Assembly (NCBI GenBank): GCA_965261085.1
Contig: OZ253442.1
Coordinates: 2,022,920-2,086,919, forward strand
DNA: 64,000 nucleotides
Origin: a bacterium
GTDB lineage: Bacteria > UBA8248
Direction of reading: 5' to 3'
The notes under the pieces were generated by a model that had not been told where the DNA came from, searched no databases, and worked only from the letters and a program-made list of their open reading frames with translations. Positions 40,370 through 64,000 of the stretch are shown here, in pieces (position 1 is the first letter of the stretch; every line of letters starts with the position of its first letter). A program made the translations under genes and the position numbers.

Positions 40370-40620
40370 ATTTGGGGTTCACTCCCCCCTGGAGATGCAT
40401 TGCCTATCGACGAGAGAGGAGAAAACCACTCCCCCCTTGAGGGGGAGTCAGTGAGCTAAGGGCAAAAGCCCGCAAGCGAACTGGTGGGGGGTATGGTTCT
40501 GAAATATGGGTTCTCCACAAAATGGGATTCACCCCTCACCGACTCAGCCTTCGCATAAACCGCTCGGCTTCGCCGACTCCCCCTCAAGGGGGGAGTGAAC
40601 CGCGGCCGATCTGGTATAGA
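40370..40620. repeat. Cluster of REP-like elements (types A and B with ACTCCCCC-TTGA/TCAA-GGGGGAGT hairpins)
   Basis: The type B unit at ~40427..40492 is near-identical to 59137..59202. The type A unit at ~40530..40598 is near-identical to 57617..57686 and 58983..59053. Confidence 0.85.
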
Positions 40621-53630: not shown

Positions 53631-53909
53631 CTACCTGGTTCGCTCGATGAGTTCGCGCAGGGACGCCATGGACTCCTCGTGCCTGCGCCCGGACTCTTCA
53701 TCCCTGCGCCGGGATTCGGCCATGAACTCGTCGTGTCTGCACTCGGAATCGGTCATCGTCTCCGCGTGTTTGCGCTCGGAGTCGGTCGCTCGCATTTCGG
53801 CGCCCTTCGCCATGGTGCGGATGCCGTAGTAGATCAGCGCGAGACCGCCGTAAGAGGCAAGGAGGTTCATGAGAGCAATGGTGAGGTTGAAGTGTTCATA
53901 CGTCGTCAT
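53631..53909 (-). CDS. Small membrane-anchored protein with tandem SERRHEESM-like repeats
   Basis: N-terminal TM helix (LLASYGGLALIYYGIRTMAKG), then four ~11-aa charged repeats. A paralogue lies at 62523..62768. Confidence 0.6.
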   Translation of the reverse strand: MTTYEHFNLTIALMNLLASYGGLALIYYGIRTMAKGAEMRATDSERKHAETMTDSECRHDEFMAESRRRDEESGRRHEESMASLRELIERTR

Positions 53910-54486
53910 GCGTTTTCTCCGTGGCGACGGGTCCCTCAGACGCCTCGTGATGCTTATGACTATAAAGAAGGCGCGCGCGTTTCGTCAATTCCCTCTCTTC
54001 CCGGTCGAATTTGATGGGAAACAACGGAAGGCGAAAGACAAAATCCCTGGGCTCCGTATTCCCTCCCTCTCCGATCGGAAATAATGCCGGAATGACGAGA
54101 AAATGCGAAAAACACTCCCCCATCGCCGAATTTGACAAAAAATCACCCAAGCAATACGATTTAATGAATTCACCATAAAGAACCTGATTCAAGATAGCCT
54201 TCCTGCAAGACACCAGGAGGCACTTGTAGATGGATTTCCTCTCTCGCTCACGAAGGCCATCCTCTCTAAATCCGTCCGTGAGGTCTGCGGGCGACAAGCC
54301 ATCTTCCACATCAACTCCATCGGCTCACCGGCCTTCGAGTCGCGTGAGGCAGGGAAAATGACAGCCAGACATATAAGTCCGCCACCAGGTTCCCGGACGG
54401 GAACATTTCTTCTTCTCACCAAGGGCCGCAACCCCCCGAAGTTTCCGGAGTCGGCGGCACGGACCCTTTATCATGGAGGAAATACG

Positions 54487-57775: not shown

Positions 57776-58738
57776 TTAATCGACGTAAATACAGGTTCCC
57801 GCCTCTCCGCGCAGGGCCGGGAGGGCATCTTCCAGGGCGGCGATGCAGATGCGCTTGCCTCCCCCTTCGAGAAAGCGGATCGCCGCCTCTATCTTGGGTC
57901 CCATGCTGCCGGGCGGGAAGTGGCCCTGGGCGTGATAATTCTTGATCTCGGATAGCGAAACTCTATCCAGTTCGCGCTGCTGCGGCGTGCCGAAGTGGAC
58001 GGCCACCCTGGGCACGGCCGTCAAGATCATCATGTCCTCTACGCCTAAGACGTTGGCCATGAGGGCGGAGGTCAAATCCTTGTCGATGACGGCGTCGAGC
58101 CCCCGACGCGCGCCGTCGGCCTCGCGCACGACGGGAATGCCCCCGCCGCCGCCCGCGATCACCACGGCGCCACTTTGCGCTATGGCCTGGATGAGCGAGA
58201 TGTCCACGATGTGTTTAGGCCTGGGGGAGGCGACCACGTGCCGCCAGCCGCGGCCCGAGTCCTCGCGCATCGTCCAGCCCATCTCCTTCTCATACCGCCT
58301 GGCTTCTTCTTCCGTGTAGGTGTAGCCCACGAACTTCGTCGGCGCGTCGAAGGCCGGATCGTCGGGGTCGACCTCGACCTGGGTCAGGAGGCAAACCACG
58401 TGGCGCGGGTCGCCCGCGCGCCTGAGCGCGTTCTCGAACGCCTGCATGAGCAGGTAGGCGATTCCCCCCTGGCTGTGAGCGACGCAGATGTCGAGCGTCA
58501 TCGGCGTCACCTGCTCGCTCGAAATCGCCTGTCGCATGAGGATTTTGCCCACGACGGGGCCGTTTCCGTGCGTGATGATGAGTTCGTTCTTGAGTTGTAG
58601 GAGGGGCAGCAGCGCGCGGCCCGTCGCCGCAGCGATGGCGGCCTGCTCCTCGGCGGTGCCGCGTATCTCGGGCGGATGGGTCGCGTTGCCGCCCACGGCG
58701 ACGAGGATGCGTTCGGGAAGTTCGGGCGGGGAGGCCAT
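57776..58738 (-). CDS. arcC: Carbamate kinase
   Basis: VGGNA, THGNGPVVG, GGGGGIPV, AVIDKD and GSMGPKIEAA motifs. Start trimmed to MASPPELP. Confidence 0.85.
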   Translation of the reverse strand: MASPPELPERILVAVGGNATHPPEIRGTAEEQAAIAAATGRALLPLLQLKNELIITHGNGPVVGKILMRQAISSEQVTPMTLDICVAHSQGGIAYLLMQAFENALRRAGDPRHVVCLLTQVEVDPDDPAFDAPTKFVGYTYTEEEARRYEKEMGWTMREDSGRGWRHVVASPRPKHIVDISLIQAIAQSGAVVIAGGGGGIPVVREADGARRGLDAVIDKDLTSALMANVLGVEDMMILTAVPRVAVHFGTPQQRELDRVSLSEIKNYHAQGHFPPGSMGPKIEAAIRFLEGGGKRICIAALEDALPALRGEAGTCIYVD

Positions 58739-58889
58739 CAGCGGTATCTCCCAATAAACCCCGGCCTTCGGAAGCGGCGGCATACAAATGCGGGTACAAG
58801 TCCCGCGCCGTCCTAAAAGCCGGGAGGAACATCTTACAACAAGCGGGGCGTTGTGGGGTAGAGAAATTTTTTGGGGGCAAGCACGACTG

Positions 58890-59290
58890 ATGAAGGAGCG
58901 ATTGCCGATTGAGGAAGGTATCGGTTCGCAACTCCTCGCTCCTTGCTCCTCGCTCGAAAGAATTCCTCCTTCATCAGTCGGAATTCACCCCCCACGCATC
59001 AGCCGTCGCACAAACCGCTCGGCTTCTGCTACTCCCCCTCAAGGGGGGAGTGATTTTGGAATTTTCCTTGTTGGGATTTGATCCGCTCGGTTGGAAACCC
59101 TCATTCTTTAATTGTCATTGACCCGCATTGGGAATCACTCCCCCCTTGAGGGGGAGTCAGTGAGGTAAGGGCGTAAGCCCGCAAGCGAACTGGTGGGGGG
59201 TGAATCGCGACCGAGAAGGGAGCGATTGCTCCTTTTCAAGTCAGGCAGCCCCTCCTTCATCAATCGGGTTTGGCCCACACCCCCCGTTCA
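58890..59290. repeat. Cluster of REP-like elements (types A and B plus CATCAGTCGG-type units)
   Basis: Type A at 58983..59053 and type B at 59137..59202, with flanking ~23-bp family units. Confidence 0.85.
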
Positions 59291-59347
59291 TCCATACTCA
59301 AGCGGCGGATGGCGACGCGTAAGTCGCGCGCGAGTCGAAATAAGGGC

Positions 59348-59380
59348 TTGACAAGAATGGAAAATTTACCGCATTATCCT
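59348..59380 (+). promoter_or_regulatory. Candidate sigma-70-like promoter of the lipoprotein leader
   Basis: TTGACA (59348..59353), then an 18-nt spacer, then CATTAT (59372..59377), in an AT-richer patch. Confidence 0.4.
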
Positions 59381-59553
59381 AATGCCGAGTAATTACACGA
59401 GAGCAGCCGCCCAAGGGACGCTCGCTGAATGCAGGACGGGCCTCATTCCAGAGGGCCGGAACGGGCGGGAACCACCTTGCGAAGTATGCACTCGCGTATG
59501 GCTTGGCGAAGCCCGGAAGACGACGACCCGGAAGGTTCCGGGCTTCAGTAGCA

Positions 59554-60152
59554 AATATCACGAGGCTAGAGGACTCGACTCATCATGAAGCATGCCGCAA
59601 ATCCCTCTCCAGTCTCGTGAATCAGTCAATCAGACGGCCCGGAGTTTTTCGTTCGCGCAAGCGGAGGCGCTCCGGCGCAGGGAAAGACGGTAAGCCCGGC
59701 GGGAGCCGGAGAAGCAGTAAATCACGAGGCTAGGCCAGAGGACTCGACCCGCGATGAAGCACGCCACGAATCCCCCTACCAGTCTCGTGAATTCACAGGC
59801 CATCGGCCCGGAGGCCCGGTTTCGCGCAAGCGGCGGCCCGGCCCCGGGAAAGATTGAAACCCGGGCAACGCCCGGATAAGGAGAATCGAAATTTCGGCTC
59901 GGGCCGGAGCGGTTTCATATCACGAGGCTGGAGGACTCAAACCATGATGATTCCTGAAAAGACTCCCACGCTAGTCTCGTGGATAAGCCGGCAACCGGCC
60001 CGGACTCGGCTGTCCGGGCCGGGGGCCTCGCGCTCCGGCGCCTGCCTGAAACGAATAAAAGCCCGATAACGGATGAAAGTCGGAAAGACAAACAGAAAGG
60101 AGGTTGGTTAAATCCAGACACTTCGGTTTTGTAGTAGCCAAAGTTCTTTAAT
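59554..60152 (+). repeat. Three tandem leader repeats (164, 198 and 237 nt), each with an ATCACGAGGCT-GAGGACTC box and a complementary AGTCTCGTG
   Basis: The boxes are at 59554, 59718 and 59916. A fourth half-unit at 60153 runs into the lipoprotein start. The 9-bp helix CACGAGGCT/AGTCTCGTG is present in each full unit. Confidence 0.85.
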
Positions 60153-60181
60153 AATATCACGAGACTAGGAGGACTCAAAAA

Positions 60182-61714
60182 GTGATGAAACTCACCAGTA
60201 ATAAAATCTTTTCATTCATGCTGGCGGCGGTGTTTGCGCTGACGCTCGCCGGCTGCGGCGGCGGCGGCGGCGGTACGGCTGCGGTGGATCCGGATCCTCC
60301 GGTGGTGACGCCGGAGCCTACCCCGCAGGAGATGTGCGCGGCGGATGGCGGGCGGTTTGAAGACGACGGGTCGTGCACCTCGGCCGCCGATCTCGAGACA
60401 GAACGTATAGCGGCGGAGGAGGCGGCAGCGGACAAAGTAGCAGATGCTACGAAATCGGCCGGTACGAAAGAAGAGGCCATCGGCGACGAGGCCGAAAGCG
60501 ACGGTGCTGGCGGTCTCGGCGGCGCTACCGCTACTGCTCTCGACATCGAACACAAAGACGGCGCTGTGTCGATCGCGGTCAGCAGAGGCACCGGCGATGA
60601 TAAGGTGGATTTCATGTCGGCCATGGATCTGACCGGCGTGGATGGCAGCACAGGCAGCATGAACTTGCTCGGCCCCAATGATGACGACGTGACGGAAATC
60701 GCTATCGTCTACACCGACATCGACACGCCCACGCCCACGAAGTTCGGGGATGAGGGCACGGATGTCACGCTGAACGCCAACCCTAAAACCACTAACGGCG
60801 AAGACTTCCAATCTGTCACTATCATCAATGATGATTTGGCGAAGATAGCGACGGATGGCATTACCGCTACAGGTGCTGGTGAGATCACTGTCCTGGCGGC
60901 AGTCGAGGACAACGACCAAACGGCGGATGTGGATGAGACCGTTGCGGCGTTTGAAACCGATGCCACCTTCGACGGCGCGGATGGCAAATTGAAGTGCGCC
61001 CGCGACACCAACTGCATGGTCACGCTCGACGCGGACGGCAAGATAACTGATTTCAGCGCCGGATGGGAGTTCACACCCGCCGATGGCGCTAAGATCGACG
61101 TGGAGGACACTGACTACCTCTGGTACGGCGCCTGGCTGATGAAGACGGCGCAAGATGATGGCTCGGATGAATACAACCAGGTCGAGACCTTCGCGGATTC
61201 GACGCTTGTTGAGGCGAACAACGTTGGTAATGTCGATGGCAGCGCGGAATATAAAGGCGGCGCGGCAGGCGTGTACGTGAGAAACGTGTACGTACCATCA
61301 ACTACGGGTGAGCAGAAACTCGACTATGCCAACTCCGGCCACTTCACGGCGAACGTCAATTTGACGGCGACCTTCGGTCAGATGAACGCAGAGGGTTGTA
61401 CTGGTGCTAACTGCGGCACCATCGCTCCCAACTTGATCAACACCGTAAGCGGAACCATCGACAACTTCAGCTTGTCCGGCGGCGAGGATGCGAGCGGCTG
61501 GGGCGTGGATGTGGCAGCCGGTATCAACGGCGCTGATCTTGAGAACGGAACGGCCAAGGGCGGTGGAGGTGATGATGGGTCGATTTCCGGAAACTTCCGC
61601 GGTACCGATACCGATGATGACGGTGCCATCGCGCCGAAAGCTCTGGTCGGCGAGTTCAACGCCGAGTTCACGAACGGCTCCGTGGCCGGTGGTTACGGTG
61701 CGAGAAGGCAGTAG
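60182..61714 (+). CDS. Lipoprotein with poly-Gly linker and TbpB/fHbp-like C-terminal barrel signature
   Basis: Signal peptide with lipobox LAGC followed by GGGGGG. The C-terminus is ISGNFRGTD...ALVGEFNAEFTNGSVAGGYGARRQ. The SD AGGAGGA is at 60166..60172. Confidence 0.75.
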   Translation: MMKLTSNKIFSFMLAAVFALTLAGCGGGGGGTAAVDPDPPVVTPEPTPQEMCAADGGRFEDDGSCTSAADLETERIAAEEAAADKVADATKSAGTKEEAIGDEAESDGAGGLGGATATALDIEHKDGAVSIAVSRGTGDDKVDFMSAMDLTGVDGSTGSMNLLGPNDDDVTEIAIVYTDIDTPTPTKFGDEGTDVTLNANPKTTNGEDFQSVTIINDDLAKIATDGITATGAGEITVLAAVEDNDQTADVDETVAAFETDATFDGADGKLKCARDTNCMVTLDADGKITDFSAGWEFTPADGAKIDVEDTDYLWYGAWLMKTAQDDGSDEYNQVETFADSTLVEANNVGNVDGSAEYKGGAAGVYVRNVYVPSTTGEQKLDYANSGHFTANVNLTATFGQMNAEGCTGANCGTIAPNLINTVSGTIDNFSLSGGEDASGWGVDVAAGINGADLENGTAKGGGGDDGSISGNFRGTDTDDDGAIAPKALVGEFNAEFTNGSVAGGYGARRQ

Positions 61715-61828
61715 AAACAGAACAGAGCAAGACGCCTGTGGTCTCGGGGCTTGACGATGAGCCCCGGGGCCGGGGCGAACCTAACAAGAAAGAAAAGGGG
61801 ATTGCAAAGCAAGGCGAGTGACGCATTT

Positions 61829-61935
61829 TGGGGGTTACTCATTGGTTGCTCTCTATCGTCGGGAGCAAATTTACCGACCCATGCTACAGAGTTTGAGTCC
61901 TCTCGGTGTGGGGAGGGAATAATGAGTAACCCCCA
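61829..61935 (+). ncRNA. Candidate structured RNA in the lipoprotein 3' region
   Basis: A perfect 15-bp long-range helix (TGGGGGTTACTCATT / AATGAGTAACCCCCA) encloses nested helices (TTGCTC/GAGCAA, ACCGA/TCGGT). A terminator follows ~60 nt later. Confidence 0.35.
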
Positions 61936-61996
61936 CCTCTTCGCTATACCCGGTTTCCCCAAGTTTGGCAAGCTCAGGTTGGATTGATTCACAGAG

Positions 61997-62029
61997 GCGG
62001 TCCCGAGAGAAGGGGCCGCCTTTTGTTTT
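61997..62029 (+). terminator. Rho-independent terminator
   Basis: GGCGGTCCC-GAGAGAA-GGGGCCGCC followed by TTTTGTTTT. Confidence 0.7.
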
Positions 62030-62086
62030 GGTGTGGGGAAGAATGCAAACGCTCCCGCATTGGTCTCGGCAAACGCTCCTTTCTCG

Positions 62087-62277
62087 GGGTTGTTGAAAAA
62101 GACCCCTTTTTAGAGACTAGAGGGGACACCCCTTTCGACTGGTAAAAGCAACCCCCCTGTCCCCCCTTGTCAGGGGGGCTTTTCTTCCACCCCCTCGTCG
62201 GGGGGCATCGCCTTTACCCCCCTGACAAGGGGGGACAGGGGGGTTGCTCCCTTGACAAAGGCTTTTTCAACAACCCC
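62087..62277. repeat. Nested ~190-bp palindromic element
   Basis: The outer arms GGGGTTGTTGAAAAAG (62087..) and its reverse complement (..62277) pair. The inner 31-bp arms 62148..62178 and 62217..62247 are perfectly complementary. The centre contains CCCCCTCGTCGGGGG. Confidence 0.85.
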
Positions 62278-62450
62278 TCTTCGGTCAGAATTGACCCTCA
62301 AGGGGGGAGTGAATTTCCTCTCTCATCAATCGGCAAACGCTCTCGCATTGGTCGCGTCAAACACTCATTCATCAATCGTGTTTGACCTTCATCGGTCGGA
62401 AGAATTCCACCCTGATCGGTCGCGTTTGCTCCTCATCGGTCGGAATTGAC
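62270..62450 (+). repeat. Tandem array (about seven units, ~23 bp) of the CATCGGTCGG-N-TTGAC repeat family
   Basis: Units include ctcttcggtcagaattgac, ctcatcaatcggcaaacgc, tcgcattggtcgcgtcaaacac, ttcatcaatcgtgtttgac, ttcatcggtcggaag..., ctgatcggtcgcgtttgc and ctcatcggtcggaattgac. Confidence 0.8.
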
Positions 62451-62522
62451 GAAGCGCGCGATCTGTTCATATAGTAATGGATGTCCCGAAGCGCCGGAGG
62501 ACCCGTCGCCAAGGAGAAACGC

Positions 62523-62768
62523 ATGACGACGTATGAATACCTGAACCTCACCGCCTCCTACGGCGGCCTTGCGCTGATCTGCTACGGCATCCGCGTCATG
62601 GCGAAGGGCGCCGAAATGCGCGCGACCGACTCCGAGCGCAAGCACGAGCAGGTGATGACCGCATCCGAGCGCAGGCACGAGGAGTCGATGACGTCCCTGC
62701 GCGAACTCATCGACGGGCAGGCGGAAAGCCGCATGGCCCTGCGCAAACTCATCGAGCGAACCGGATAG
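62523..62768 (+). CDS. Small membrane-anchored protein, paralogue of 53631..53909
   Basis: MTTYEYLNLTASYGGLALICYGIRVMAKGAEMRATDSERKH..., with only two charged repeats. Confidence 0.6.
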   Translation: MTTYEYLNLTASYGGLALICYGIRVMAKGAEMRATDSERKHEQVMTASERRHEESMTSLRELIDGQAESRMALRKLIERTG

Positions 62769-62951
62769 CGAACCACAAGGTCGTCATTCCGGCGCATGCC
62801 GGTGGCGACCGTGAGGTTGACCAGAACCAAAGTGGAACGTCCGGCGTCGGGCGTTTCTGCACCCCGGATAAAACGCTCCGGGATGACGAGCCAAACCTTT
62901 ATCCGCCGCAGCAAACTCTCTCGCGTTTGACGCGTTTGATCTCACTCGGTT

Positions 62952-62981
62952 CCCTGCCGGAACCGGCAGGGGGCTTTTTTT
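62952..62981 (+). terminator. Rho-independent terminator
   Basis: CCCTGCCGG-AA-CCGGCAGGG followed by GGCTTTTTTT. Confidence 0.7.
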
Positions 62982-63047
62982 GCTCGAACGCGAGTGAGGA
63001 GAGGGGGTCAATATGTTATTATAACGAGACCAGAGGGGACTCAAAAA

Positions 63048-64000
63048 GTGATGAAACTCACCGGTAATAAAATCTTTTCATTCATGTGGGCGGCGGCCTT
63101 CGCGCTGACGCTGGCCGGCTGCGGCGGCGGCGGTGGTGGTGGTGCGTCGGACGATACCATGACGACACCGTCAGTACCCGACCAGGCGATCATGGCGGCG
63201 AAAGATGCGGCGGCGGAAGCTGCGGCAGAGGCTACGGCGGCGCTGAATGCAGCGAAGGAGGCCGTAGACGGCGCCAGTGCAGACCAGGATTATGACGCCG
63301 TGCACTACGCTCTCGCCACTACCGAACTGGGCAAGGCCAAGGATGCCAAGGCGGCTGCGGAGGCCGCACAGGCGGACGCCGAGATGTTCGCCAAGGCGGT
63401 TGCGGATGCCAAGAAGGCTGCGCCTCCGGCTTCTTCGGATCAGGCCGAGTTTGAAGCAAGGCTGGCCCTGGCGGATGCCAAGACTGCAACGGCGAGCGCC
63501 GTAGCGGCGGCGGGTGCGGCCGTGACGGCGACGAAGGCGGCTGCGAGAGCGGCGGCGGCTGCGGTGACCAAGGCGACGGCGGCAAGGACGAATGCCGCTG
63601 GAGCCGAGGCCGCGAAGAAGGCGGCGGATCAAGCGGCGAAGGACGCGGCGGCCGCCAAGAAGACGGCGGATGCGGCGAAGGCCGCCGTAGCGAAACTCAA
63701 TGATGACGGCATCGGCACCAGGAAGGGTGCTGCGGACCTCGAGTCGGCTGCGGACACTGCTGCGGGCAATGCAGCCACCGCCATGAGGAAGGCGAATGAA
63801 GCCAAGGCGGCTGCCGAAAAGGCGCGGGACGATGCCATGGCTGCGGCTAACACGCACGTTCTGGGCTTGTTCAAGGCGGCGAATGGAGACGATATTACAT
63901 TTGTCGGCAGTGAAGATGATGCGGATATCGCCTCTGCTCTCGGAAGAGCGAAATCCGCTCGGAGAAAGGCCGTTATCGAAGCAATCGGAACAGCGGCGGA
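63048..64000 (+). CDS. Lipoprotein with Ala/Lys-rich region (partial, runs off the window)
   Basis: My manual translation found no stop from GTG-ATG at 63048/63051 to the window end. The product begins MMKLTGNKIFSFMWAAAFALTLAGCGGGGGGG. Its 5' UTR and signal peptide are nearly identical at DNA level to 60153..60275. Confidence 0.7.
   Translation, partial: MMKLTGNKIFSFMWAAAFALTLAGCGGGGGGGASDDTMTTPSVPDQAIMAAKDAAAEAAAEATAALNAAKEAVDGASADQDYDAVHYALATTELGKAKDAKAAAEAAQADAEMFAKAVADAKKAAPPASSDQAEFEARLALADAKTATASAVAAAGAAVTATKAAARAAAAAVTKATAARTNAAGAEAAKKAADQAAKDAAAAKKTADAAKAAVAKLNDDGIGTRKGAADLESAADTAAGNAATAMRKANEAKAAAEKARDDAMAAANTHVLGLFKAANGDDITFVGSEDDADIASALGRAKSARRKAVIEAIGTAA

Follow-up and report, generated by a model that had tools for sequence, protein, structure and literature searches.

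In translational attenuation of ermC and cat, a short leader ORF with its own Shine–Dalgarno (SD) sequence lies in hairpins that sequester the downstream SD, and ribosome occupancy selects the pairing. Sequestration of a ribosome-binding site (RBS) can also act over long distances, as in MS2 coat/replicase, where it is opened by upstream translation. CsrB/RsmZ-type RNAs and CsrA-bound leaders carry repeated GGA elements, one of which overlaps the true SD, and the very long leaders of Salmonella mgtA and mgtCBR contain short Pro-rich ORFs that are thought to choose between alternative stem-loops. Anti-SD-like sequences hundreds of nucleotides away are reported to pair with the RBS of B. subtilis mRNAs and to repress expression in vivo (PMC12697547). 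The long cry3Aa leader of Bacillus thuringiensis has an extra SD (STAB-SD) that is reported to stabilise the mRNA (PMC12970973, citing Agaisse and Lereclus 1996). Complementarity between the 3'UTR and the SD region of one mRNA is described for icaR of Staphylococcus aureus (PMC3868564) and hbs of B. subtilis (PMC5737220).

Here, we analyze the region upstream of a surface-lipoprotein gene from a group of uncultured, sponge-associated, Nitrospinota-labelled bacteria, in a stretch of 64,000 nucleotides (the window). As in ermC and cat, short leader ORFs with their own SD precede the gene, and hairpin strands are predicted to sequester the downstream SD, but here there are 2–4 tandem modules up to ~660 nt from the RBS, each a copy of the true RBS, some of them lacking a start codon, and there is no antibiotic-resistance context. 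Like MS2 and the B. subtilis mRNAs (PMC12697547), the leader has distant pyrimidine-rich anti-SD segments complementary to the RBS, and translation through such a segment would open the pairing; here, however, the segments lie upstream in the untranslated leader, in several copies, each with a decoy partner. The very long leader with short Pro-rich ORFs recalls mgtA and mgtCBR, although there is no sequence or structural homology and the ORFs here are repeated and overlap the anti-SD. These Pro codons may be no more than the anti-SD read as codons. Our preferred reading, which we hold tentatively and at a little less than an even chance, is that 59384–60184 is the 5' leader of the surface-lipoprotein mRNA, transcribed from 59348–59377 and acting in cis and post-transcriptionally through competition between decoy-RBS and anti-RBS strands and through translation of upstream ORFs (uORFs). 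With its ~800 bases, the leader probably sets the output level of the lipoprotein.

Architecture and conservation of the locus

From 5' to 3', the locus consists of a TTGACA promoter, a ~175-nt 5' domain, 2–4 hairpin modules, spacer hairpins, an orphan perfect SD and the true RBS (Table 1). This architecture is demonstrably conserved at the syntenic locus, which adjoins a carbamate-kinase-like gene, in no fewer than 13 other genomes or contigs. It was found, with one leader per genome, in 10 species-representative genomes, two metagenome contigs and two additional contigs. In the following, L-numbers are related loci and W is the window leader. Conservation is unbroken up to the RBS in the aligned leaders, and the segment from the B-type module to the RBS has 74–94% nucleotide identity between loci. 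The modules keep their length, both helix strands and their order across species that share no alignable intergenic DNA upstream of the promoter region.

Table 1 Features of the lipoprotein locus (positions within the window)
Feature	Position	Strand	Details
Palindrome, 10 bp	59324..59333	.	TCGCGCGCGA (TTGCGCGCAA in most relatives); ~15 bp upstream of the −35 hexamer
Promoter candidate	59348..59377	+	TTGACA-N18-CATTAT (CACTAT in most relatives)
Structured 5' domain	59384..59557	+	RNAalifold and covariation
Module 1, A type	59558..59620	+	Box, AGAGGA, ATG 59585, folded onto CCCTCTCCAGTCTCGTGA; mini-ORF 59585–59620 (MKHAANPSPVS, stop); covariance-model score 82.5 bits
Spacer 1	59621..59721	+	Long GC hairpin GGCCCGGAG..CTCCGGCGC with GCAA-capped inner stem
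Module 2, A type	59722..59790	+	Mini-ORF 59754–59879; 66.7 bits
Spacer 2	59791..59919	+	GC hairpins ending CCGGC-TCGG-GCCGG, then T-rich tract
Module 3, B type	59920..59982	+	3' strand CTAGTCTCGTGG without stop codon; mini-ORF 59944–60069; 69.7 bits
Very stable GC hairpin cluster	59985..60045	+	GGCCCGGAC-N6-GTCCGGGCC at 59997–60020
Orphan perfect SD	60095..60103	+	GAAAGGAGG; no usable start codon behind; ~85 nt upstream of gene start
True RBS	60156..60187	+	Box ATCACGAGACTAG, SD GGAGGA 60168–60173, GTG 60182 / ATG 60185
Lipoprotein gene	60182 (GTG) / 60185 (ATG) to 61714	+	Lipobox LTLAGC, then poly-Gly
Conserved structured 3'UTR element	61830..61937	+	36 pairs, 6 with compensatory changes
First intrinsic-terminator-like site after promoter	61993..62030	+	Terminator scan

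The leader is conserved far better than the lipoprotein that it precedes. The N terminus, MKLTSNKIFSFMLAAVFALTLAGCGGGGGG, a signal peptide with the lipobox cysteine, is conserved in all orthologues, and the mature part is hypervariable; the lipoproteins share only 26–41% protein identity (80% in the near-identical L026). Sequence searches of Pfam, NCBIfam and PDB gave no match to the lipoprotein, and exact-sequence look-ups of the window protein returned no record; its C-terminal ..GAFGA.KQ motif may resemble the 8-stranded barrel domain of the TbpB/fHbp type. A SlipAM (PF04575) gene adjoins the paralogs P0066 (L027) and P0015 (L030), and no Slam or SlipAM gene is seen within the window beside the lipoprotein gene. 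The homolog L034, beside an integrase, has an ordinary short RBS; hence, the leader is not universal in the protein family.

Rfam 15 at gathering score gives 0 matches over the whole window, in agreement with the original prediction that no riboswitch class fits, and ARAGORN found neither tRNA nor tmRNA. A permissive-filter Rfam scan of 59250–60300 returned only RT-3 (RF03068; 20.2 bits, gathering score 40.5, E = 0.025), which we reject as a chance match that overlaps GC hairpins only.

The promoter candidate is the sole + strand sigma-70-like match in 58800–62200, L002 gives the same match, and TTGACA is invariant in 12 loci. Upstream of it, the palindrome, by its sequence a candidate transcription-factor site, is held in a block, AAGTTGCGCGCAAGTT, that is near-invariant over 12 aligned loci and doubled in L008. 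The 5' domain starts 6–8 nt past the −10 hexamer and is closed by a helix of GCCGAG (59384–59389) and CTTGGC (59502–59507), within which nested helices include the box-like CACGAGAGC; a second hairpin, AGCCCGG (59510–59516) with CCGGGCT (59538–59544), has the invariant loop AAGACGACGACCC. RNAalifold finds 7 pairs with compensatory changes in the domain, and in a pair count over the alignment 93% of cells are paired, compared with 32–46% when slid. The covariation is significant and on the + strand (score 0.206 vs 0.155, reached by 0/500 shuffles). Together with the absence of any + strand terminator between promoter and gene in the window, the position and the strand-specific covariation of the 5' domain support the originally predicted single long leader from the TTGACA promoter. 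A second, weak promoter may lie in the A/T-rich stretch just upstream of the RBS.

Spacer 1 contains a second hairpin, CCCGGC-GGGA-GCCGG (59695–59709), with a GNRA tetraloop; a GNRA loop is found in 14/15 equivalent spacer hairpins across loci, on a constant stem. The GC hairpin after the last module has a 6-nt loop that is hypervariable between species. Further downstream, AAAGGAGG is conserved in all aligned leaders, and the orphan SD of the relatives, GGAGGTCGAATCC, has no ATG, GTG or TTG 4–12 nt downstream.

At the other end of the transcript, the loop TTTGAGTC of a 3'UTR hairpin, in TTTGAGTCCTC at 61892–61902, is a perfect 11-nt complement of GAGGACTCAAA at 60169–60179 in the true RBS, a match reached in 1/2000 dinucleotide shuffles. 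As in icaR and hbs, a 3'UTR stretch could pair with the SD region of its own mRNA, but in this case the complementary sequence occupies the loop of a conserved multi-helix element and fits every decoy module as well. Loop and RBS are both invariant, so covariation is not possible. The scan found no + strand terminator from the stop codon up to this element, and the terminator-like site that follows the element is, on sequence grounds, the probable 3' end of the mRNA. The 3' element also contains a T-loop-like GAGTTTGAGTCC. The 5' domain, the orphan SD and the 3'UTR element form one system with the modules. These three elements, the conservation of the mini-ORFs and the sequestration of the module SD by CCUC were missed by the original prediction.

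Modules, mini-ORFs and pairing with the true RBS

The window has four boxes of the form ATCACGAG[G/A]CT..GAGGACTC, three of them followed downstream by AGTCTCGTG. On the + strand, the box reads ATCACGAGGCT at 59557, 59721 and 59919 and ATCACGAGACT at 60156, and its echoes on the reverse strand, at 59611 and 59781, correspond to AGTCTCGTG. When one mismatch is tolerated, the box has 7 matches in the window against 2.0 expected, and 0/100 shuffles reach 7. A repeat search returned the 4-copy families D1 and D4, with spacings of 164–169, 193–198 and 237–238 nt. Tandem Repeats Finder reported no tandem array of these units and only cores of ~63 nt are alike between them, with spacers that differ in length and sequence; hence, the "3.5 tandem repeats" originally described are loose wording for three modules dispersed in tandem and the true RBS. 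The features were also placed 1 nt off (the 11-nt match at 59970–59980 / 60157–60167 and the mini-ORF starts).

Module length is near-constant at 63 nt (62–64 nt in 35/37 modules). The 5' strand is a decoy of the true RBS, with the box ATCACGAGGCY, GAGGA and a start codon 8–11 nt downstream, and the 3' strand, CCYCYCC-AGUCUCGUG, combines an anti-SD with an anti-box and lies inside the mini-ORF. Module 2 carries five extra nucleotides in its 5' strand and a further 1-nt insertion that puts its mini-ORF in a different frame. In the predicted hairpin, the module SD is sequestered by CCUC of the mini-ORF (GAGG pairs with CCUC). RNAalifold independently predicts the helix between the box of each unit and its own downstream AGTCTCGTG, as had been proposed, with 90% of cells paired compared with 35–52% for slid partners and changes that are mostly G–U compatible. 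No covariation was found in this helix: its pairs are invariant or changed on one side, and shuffles equal the observed values. Given that the helix is near-invariant, covariation cannot prove it. A covariance model of the modules has matches in this leader only.

Most modules have a conserved mini-ORF. An ATG follows GAGGA at 8–11 nt in 21/27 A-type modules and 12/12 last modules (L016 has a second in-frame ATG at 14 nt), and 19 of the 21 ORFs in A-type modules with an ATG stop at a conserved TGA/TAA inside the 3' strand. KPPP or NPSP is encoded shortly before the stop codon. L008 and L025 keep the frame via shifted or alternative ATGs. In last modules, the ATG is in frame with GTC TCG TGG in 12/12 leaders, and the module 3 uORF reads through the 3' strand into the next hairpin. 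The start codon is absent from 8/29 A-type modules, including both of L032, so A-type mini-ORFs are dispensable. We reject selection on the peptides themselves: third-position bias is absent from codons 2–6, modules that lack an ATG still conserve CCACGCC, the last-module ORF does not keep its frame beyond ~30 codons, and L032 lacks both A-type ATGs.

The true RBS is invariant in all complete-RBS leaders (12 compared), and its box has an A (GAGACT) where 37/37 aligned modules have a G (GAGGCY). The true RBS has its complement in the module 3' strands of every species, and in the window this includes a perfect 11-nt inverted repeat, 59971–59981 / 60158–60168. On a module 3' strand, the true RBS, CACGAGACU-A-GGAGG, is calculated to form a 14-bp duplex with a single bulge (−23.8 to −26.6 kcal/mol). 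The duplex with the module 3' strand is more stable for the true RBS in 28/34 modules (mean −1.5, up to −6.6 kcal/mol), and the fixed A against G is the base that causes this difference.

In full-length ensembles, a thermodynamic prediction, the RBS box pairs with a module 3' strand at P 0.7–1.0 in 10/11 leaders. The anti-RBS strand can come from any of the modules, and which one is predicted to pair with the RBS varies by species. Competing folds lie 1–4 kcal/mol apart out of approximately −350, the pairing vanishes at a span limit of 150 nt, and the ensemble prediction is not robust; co-transcriptional folding would favour local hairpins. No covariation was found for the RBS/anti-RBS pairing, local or alternative, given that the helix and the RBS are near-invariant. 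When the RBS was made module-like in silico, pairing was lower in W, L002 and L008 and not in L011, L015, L016 and L023, that is, it stayed largely intact in 4/7 scored leaders, with last-module 3' strands outside the scoring. The sequence observations behind the original prediction are confirmed; its interpretation is partly supported.

Alternative explanations

The original proposal amounts to a two-state switch in which the unit 3 strand 59971–59981 toggles, on some signal, between its own box and the true RBS box at 60158–60168 and thereby occludes or frees the SD. In the window, the perfect 11-nt complement does favour the true RBS over the unit's own box, by 2.1 kcal/mol, and the last-module 3' strand is the partner of the RBS in the L006, L018 and L024 ensembles (P 0.9–1.0). 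The 11-nt match is not conserved, however: the last module reads CCAGTCTCGTGG in six species, which allows 9–10 bp only, the own box is preferred by 2–3 kcal/mol in the last modules of L011, L015, L016 and L023, and another module is the predicted partner in W, L002, L008, L011, L015, L016 and L023. Neither a ligand-binding pocket nor covariation marks unit 3 as a sensor, and we consider a switch centered on it quite unlikely. A platform for a repressor, CsrA-like or dedicated, that binds box and GGA at the true RBS while the upstream copies titrate or cooperate is highly doubtful. The box ATCACGAG.C..GAGGACTC is conserved well past the needs of an SD and is common to the RBS, all modules and the paralog at 63020, and as in CsrB/RsmZ-type RNAs one of the repeated GGA-containing elements overlaps the true SD. 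However, the GGA lies in a predicted stem, which weakens the initial analogy to protein-titrating leaders, and the repeats take the form of 63-nt hairpins that include start codons and ORFs. The loop of the predicted module hairpin starts with ACUCAAC and presents no A(N)GGA of the CsrA/RsmA kind. Neither a candidate protein nor a link to CsrA was found, and the 3'UTR loop offers an alternative, RNA-based reason for the conservation of GACUCAA.

Unlikely, although not strikingly so, is a constitutive stabiliser or enhancer without switching, in which decoy SDs, orphan SD and hairpins bind 30S subunits or ribosomes and block RNases, giving a long-lived, highly translated mRNA of an abundant surface protein. 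The orphan SD is kept here and in the unrelated leaders of the paralogs L027 and L028 (degenerate, TAGGAGGT, in L029), an A/U-rich stretch lies just upstream of the true RBS, and the 5' end is in the closing helix. The cry3Aa STAB-SD, as described in PMC12970973, is a precedent with a long leader, a transcription start far upstream and a strong SD not used for initiation, but it belongs to a different phylum, the orphan SD here is one element among decoy hairpins and uORFs, and its stabilising role is putative. Stabilisation alone, however, leaves unexplained why decoys pair with a strand that matches the true RBS and why G is fixed against A, and the decoy SDs are themselves sequestered in predicted hairpins. 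An independent small RNA, made of the 5' domain and the A-type modules and ending at the hairpin and T tract before the last module, with the lipoprotein mRNA starting elsewhere, is very improbable. L002 does have a terminator-like hairpin followed by T7, and L011, L015, L018 and L023 have T6, but the window, L024 and L025 read TTTCAT at this point and L016 reads TTTTCAT, the terminator scan is silent in the window, L011 and L015, and conservation is continuous to the RBS. With the terminator flagged in L002 only, a conserved attenuator before the last module is likewise rejected. It is extremely unlikely that the modules are non-functional debris, that is, scars of repeated duplication or recombination where the genes of a variable lipoprotein family share a conserved 5' homology region. 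They resemble the true 5' end in box, SD, ATG and 13/18 first coding bases, mature proteins are hypervariable, and the L027 leader has a recent-looking tandem duplication of the RBS and 16 codons. That duplication is itself conserved in L030, however, the module 3' strand has no counterpart in the gene, and the length, helix strands and order of the modules persist where the flanking DNA cannot be aligned.

Proposed mechanism and implications

In the preferred competition between decoy-RBS and anti-RBS strands, N+1 RBS-like strands would compete for N anti-RBS strands, and given this excess and the 14-bp pairing, the true RBS would be either sequestered or free. Ribosomes on a decoy would translate its mini-ORF and presumably sweep over the anti-RBS strand. 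The best candidate for such sweeping is the universally conserved last-module uORF, and the Pro-rich end of the A-type ORFs could prolong ribosome occupancy of the strand. A sweep would free the true RBS, so that output would be set by leader translation or 30S binding. That competition would switch translation, and in which direction, we infer from this model. The orphan SD and the bound ribosomes would probably stabilise the long mRNA as well. In support of the model, a decoy copy of the RBS with the first codons also occurs, conserved between L027 and L030, in the leader of another paralog. In a rather unlikely variant, the network would be balanced, with N+1 RBS-like strands (N decoys and the true RBS) facing N+1 anti-RBS strands (N 3' strands and the loop UUUGAGUCCUC). 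Translation of uORFs slowed by Pro-Pro-Pro or Pro-Ser-Pro would then redistribute the partners, and the mRNA would serve as a timer or sensor driven by ribosomes (of EF-P or translation capacity, for instance) and gate the synthesis of a hypervariable surface antigen, with module number tuning the threshold of each species.

If the competition model holds, RBS control here would be modular and copy-number-variable, with copies of RBS and anti-RBS that neutralise themselves and ribosomes on decoys that decide whether the site opens. This would extend the short list of mechanisms based on uORFs and SD sequestration by a new design, and the leader would be among the largest conserved cis-regulatory leaders known outside model organisms. 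The leader, the 3'UTR element and the invariant signal-peptide DNA offer handles, as covariance models or probes, for finding the expression site in metagenomes. The putatively Slam-type surface lipoprotein changes much more rapidly than the leader in front of it, and for the uncultured symbionts that carry it, surface variation probably matters for life with the host.

A leader retained across related genomes

The leader of the surface-lipoprotein gene is built around modules, hairpins of ~63 nt whose 5' strand is a decoy ribosome-binding site (RBS) with a box, a Shine–Dalgarno sequence (SD) and a start codon, and whose 3' strand is an anti-RBS. Modules are of A type or of B type, the latter usually being last. 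Conservation, anatomy and complementarity can be read directly from the compared loci. The boxes, mini-ORFs, promoter and lipoprotein ORF named in the original prediction are all present, although their exact positions had been placed ~1 nt too low. With up to one mismatch, the box has seven matches in the window compared with 2.0 expected, a number that no shuffle reached, and AGTCTCGTG lies ~45 nt 3' of each of the first three boxes. A repeat search gives four-copy families at spacings of ~165, ~195 and ~238 nt. The description as 3.5 tandem repeats is loose, as Tandem Repeats Finder did not detect the leader units as an array in the window, because their similarity is confined to the ~63-nt cores.

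Features of the lipoprotein locus and its surroundings (window positions unless prefixed by a locus handle)
Feature	Position	Strand	Remarks
Repeat element	40380-40600		~150-220 nt
Small ORF, multi-copy	62481-62768	+	diverged copy near 53632-53988
Carbamate-kinase-like gene	57776-58783		upstream of the leader
REP-like palindromes and CCTCCTTCATCAATCGG-type repeats	58870-59280; 62130-62450		intergenic; complementary pair 59031-59055 / 59133-59157
Second promoter-like element	59268-59300		TTGGCC..CATACT; counterparts L011:4396-4424, L015:4421-4449
Promoter candidate	59348-59377	+	TTGACA-N18-CATTAT; sole promoter-like site on + strand within 58800-62200
Leader	59384-60184	+
Boxes	59557; 59721; 59919; 60156	+	ATCACGAGGCT (first three); ATCACGAGACT (last)
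Mini-ORFs	59585-59620; 59754-59879; 59944-60069	+
Perfect 11-nt inverted repeat	59971-59981 / 60158-60168		found by repeat search of the window
RT-3 RNA match (RF03068)	59993-60131		below threshold
Orphan SD	60095-60103		without usable start codon
True RBS	60156-60187		box, SD and GTG/ATG
Lipoprotein ORF	60182/60185-61714	+	lipobox present
3'UTR element	61830-61937		~108 nt, 3' of stop codon; multi-helix fold, 15-bp closing stem; loop 61892-61902
Second paralog	start 63048/63051		box ATAACGAGACCAGAGGGGACTCAAAAAGTGATG and signal-peptide DNA shared; terminator-like hairpin and T-run ~62945-62980
Tandem duplicate of RBS and first 16 codons	L027:2667-3048; L030:2160-2540		SlipAM (PF04575)-linked paralog

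A pattern scan with each species represented by one genome shows the box architecture once per genome in 10 genomes (L001, L002, L006, L008, L011, L015, L016, L017, L018 and L023, of which L018 carries a Nitrospinota label), and the 13 remaining matches are single chance matches. A metagenome scan adds the leaders of L024 and L025, and protein look-ups add L026 and L032; L026 has a leader near-identical to that of the window and a lipoprotein 80% identical to the window's. The locus is syntenic, with the carbamate-kinase-like gene upstream in nine loci (eight by blastn comparison, at 82–90% nucleotide identity, and L026 by gene table), and the leader architecture is retained at this syntenic locus in related genomes. 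All leaders follow a shared plan: the palindrome TTGCGCGCAA with a TTGACA promoter, a 5' domain of ~175 nt, then one to three modules of A type and usually a single B module, a highly stable cluster of GC hairpins, CCCGATAACGG..GAAAGTCGGAAAG, the orphan SD AAAGGAGG followed by an A/T-rich stretch, and the invariant true RBS ATCACGAGACTAGGAGGACTCAAA(A)GTGATG. Total length varies from ~650 to 1000 nt because module number differs (2–4 per leader). From B module to RBS, leaders have 74–94% nucleotide identity to the window, and signal-peptide DNA has 77–92% identity across species, whereas mature lipoproteins have just 26–41% protein identity to that of the window. Between the window and L002, 94% nucleotide identity in the B-to-RBS segment accompanies 41% protein identity, and conservation of the lipoprotein falls far below that of its leader.

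Another conserved promoter-like element (TTGACC-N17-CATAAT in relatives) lies ~85 nt 5' of the TTGACA promoter and could serve either as a tandem promoter or for the binding of a regulator. REP-like palindromes (ACTCCCCCTCAAGGGGGGAGTGATT), including one 100% complementary pair, and CCTCCTTCATCAATCGG-type repeats fill two intergenic stretches, and related elements occur in other loci. A further repeat element has 70–79% identity to several places in related loci.

Structure of the leader and its modules

The 5' domain starts 6–8 nt past the -10 hexamer and is closed by the helix GCCGAG/CUUGGC, which is GUCAAG/CUUGAC in half of the species. RNAalifold gives seven pairs with compensatory changes, 93% of cells are paired (32–46% with slid partners), and neither the covariation score nor the number of doubly changed cells was reached by any of 500 shuffles. 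G-U alternation at many of these pairs fits the + strand only. Spacer hairpins (CCGGC-GNRA-GCCGG) keep their loop within GNRA in 14 of 15 cases, and a big hairpin, GGCCCGGAC-N6-GTCCGGGCC, keeps its stem around a hypervariable loop. No + strand terminator was found before 61993 in the window, and the hairpin and T-tract ahead of the B module are terminator-like in L002 only. Taken together, these patterns support a single long transcript from the predicted promoter, and the region is very probably a functional, transcribed, cis-acting structured leader. A match to RT-3 RNA (20.2 bits against a gathering threshold of 40.5, E = 0.025), overlapping the GC hairpins 3' of the last module, is probably due to chance.

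We collected 37 complete modules, 35 of them 62–64 nt long. RNAalifold independently predicts two helices, an outer one (UCACGAGGC / GUCUCGUGA) and an inner one that pairs the decoy SD GAGG with CCUC; 90% of cells are paired, compared with 35–52% when slid. Covariation, clear in the 5' domain, was not found above chance in the module helix, for which shuffles equal the real data: its columns are nearly invariant, with one compensatory change (L018 module 2). One-sided changes are mostly G-U-compatible (A replaced by G opposite U in the last module of L006, L011, L016 and L023; otherwise C replaced by U in L015 and G-U by G-C in L016), which is suggestive of the helix, not proof of it. A covariance model built on the module recovers every known copy at 55–90 bits; across the 64-kb window and ~135 kb of related loci it has no other match.

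In its 5' strand, each module reproduces the true RBS (box, GAGGACTC and a start codon 8–11 nt later) along with 13 of the gene's first 18 coding bases; modules are therefore decoys. Nothing in the lipoprotein gene corresponds to the 3' strand. Duplication at the 5' end of the gene probably gave rise to the decoys.

An ATG is present in 21 of the 27 A-type modules from the first 13 loci, and in 19 of them the ORF, encoding M.HA[TA][NK]P[SP]PVS*, ends at TGA/TAA within the 3' strand. In L008 a shifted ATG maintains the frame and in L025 an alternative ATG further upstream does so; L008 module 2 retains its stop (TAA) despite a changed helix. GGCG replaces GATG in six modules, which have no ORF, and neither A-type module of L032 has an ATG. 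Given these ATG-less modules and the lack of third-position bias in codons 2–6, the peptide is not the selected feature and the A-type ORFs are dispensable. The B module has UGG instead of a stop codon, and in 12 of 12 leaders its ATG shares a frame with GUC UCG UGG, also in L011 and L015, which have a 1-nt indel in the SD–ATG spacing. Its ORF enters the GC hairpins and stops after 33–47 codons in an A-rich stretch; conservation of the frame does not extend to its C-terminal part.

Predicted pairing partners of the true RBS

Two fixed differences distinguish the true RBS from the decoys, GAGACU against GAGGCY in 37/37 aligned modules and GGAGG against AGAGG in A modules, and both strengthen pairing to module 3' strands. 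As computed, CACGAGACU-A-GGAGG on CCUCC-AGUCUCGUG forms 14 bp with one bulge (-23.8 to -26.6 kcal/mol), and in 28 of 34 cases the duplex with the true RBS is more stable than that with the module's own 5' strand (mean difference -1.5 kcal/mol). In partition functions computed over the full length, the RBS box pairs with the 3' strand of a module in 10 of 11 leaders (P 0.7–1.0). The original prediction had singled out unit 3, the B module of the window, as alternative partner through its 11-nt match. Its general part holds at the level of prediction, in that anti-RBS strands of the leader can occlude the SD, but neither the special role of unit 3 nor the 11-nt match is conserved: the predicted partner module varies between species, and in L011, L015, L016 and L023 the last module is of CCAG type and favours its own box. 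The predicted pairing is also fragile, given that it was largely unchanged in four of seven scored leaders when the RBS was made decoy-like in silico and was abolished by a 150-nt span limit. Long-range anti-SD pairing is reported to work in vivo in Bacillus subtilis (PMC12697547).

A second possible partner lies in the 3'UTR, where a structured element is kept after the lipoprotein genes of the main locus and paralogs (also in L006, L008, L011, L018, L023, L024, L025, L026, L028, L029, with two copies, and L032). It has 36 consensus pairs, six with compensatory changes, and three pairs of the closing stem show compensatory changes when main-locus copies are compared with paralog copies. Searches with Rfam and ARAGORN gave no match. 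The hairpin loop UUUGAGUC of the element is invariant; in its extended form, UUUGAGUCCUC, it is perfectly complementary over 11 nt to GAGGACUCAAA of the true RBS and also matches AGAGGACUCAA of the decoys. This complement, spotted post hoc, was reached in 1 of 2,000 dinucleotide shuffles. It could explain the conservation of GACUCAA beyond the SD and suggests, by analogy, a 5'–3' UTR interaction of the kind known for icaR (PMC3868564).

Gene family and proposed mechanism

The lipoprotein family is large (at least 281 matches, with source names including “Nitrospinae bacterium”), with several paralogs per genome and no Pfam domain found. At two paralog loci the gene adjoins SlipAM/Slam (PF04575), which supports the label “surface lipoprotein” by context. 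Paralog leaders are likewise long (~800 nt), with the orphan SD AAAGGAGGT in L027 and L028 and a degenerate TAGGAGGT in L029. The tandem duplicate of L027 and L030 (period 203–233 nt, 86–88% identity over RBS and coding blocks) yields an upstream decoy RBS with a 45-codon ORF and no anti-strand; it is kept between these two species, so decoy-RBS leaders occur repeatedly within the family. The second paralog of the window, 79–89% identical to RBS regions of related loci over 63016-63155, has only a short region upstream, preceded by a terminator-like hairpin, and no module leader. A conserved 5' end across paralogs with hypervariable mature parts resembles upstream homology regions of variable surface-protein systems. 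The multi-copy small ORF, which adjoins lipoprotein loci in several genomes and has copies in L002, L006, L017 and L025, encodes 95 aa with one predicted hydrophobic helix, a charged tail and no Pfam match.

We propose that N+1 RBS-like strands would vie for N anti-RBS strands, each within a mini-ORF. A ribosome loading on a free decoy would translate across the anti-RBS strand and displace its bound partner, which may be the true RBS; the uORF of the last module, always present, would be likeliest to matter. The orphan SD and bound ribosomes may also protect the long mRNA, by analogy with the STAB-SD of cry3Aa, an SD reported to stabilize its mRNA (PMC12970973). We hold this specific competition model tentatively, as slightly less probable than an even chance. 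Switching, its direction and its signal are inferred.

In principle, uORFs, SD sequestration and stabilizing SDs are known from ermC/cat leaders, the MS2 long-distance interaction, STAB-SD and icaR. No described RNA family was found to match it. To our knowledge, an array of self-paired copies of a gene's own RBS has not previously been described; here, the decoy array is kept across species, varies in copy number and is joined to a covariation-supported 5' domain.
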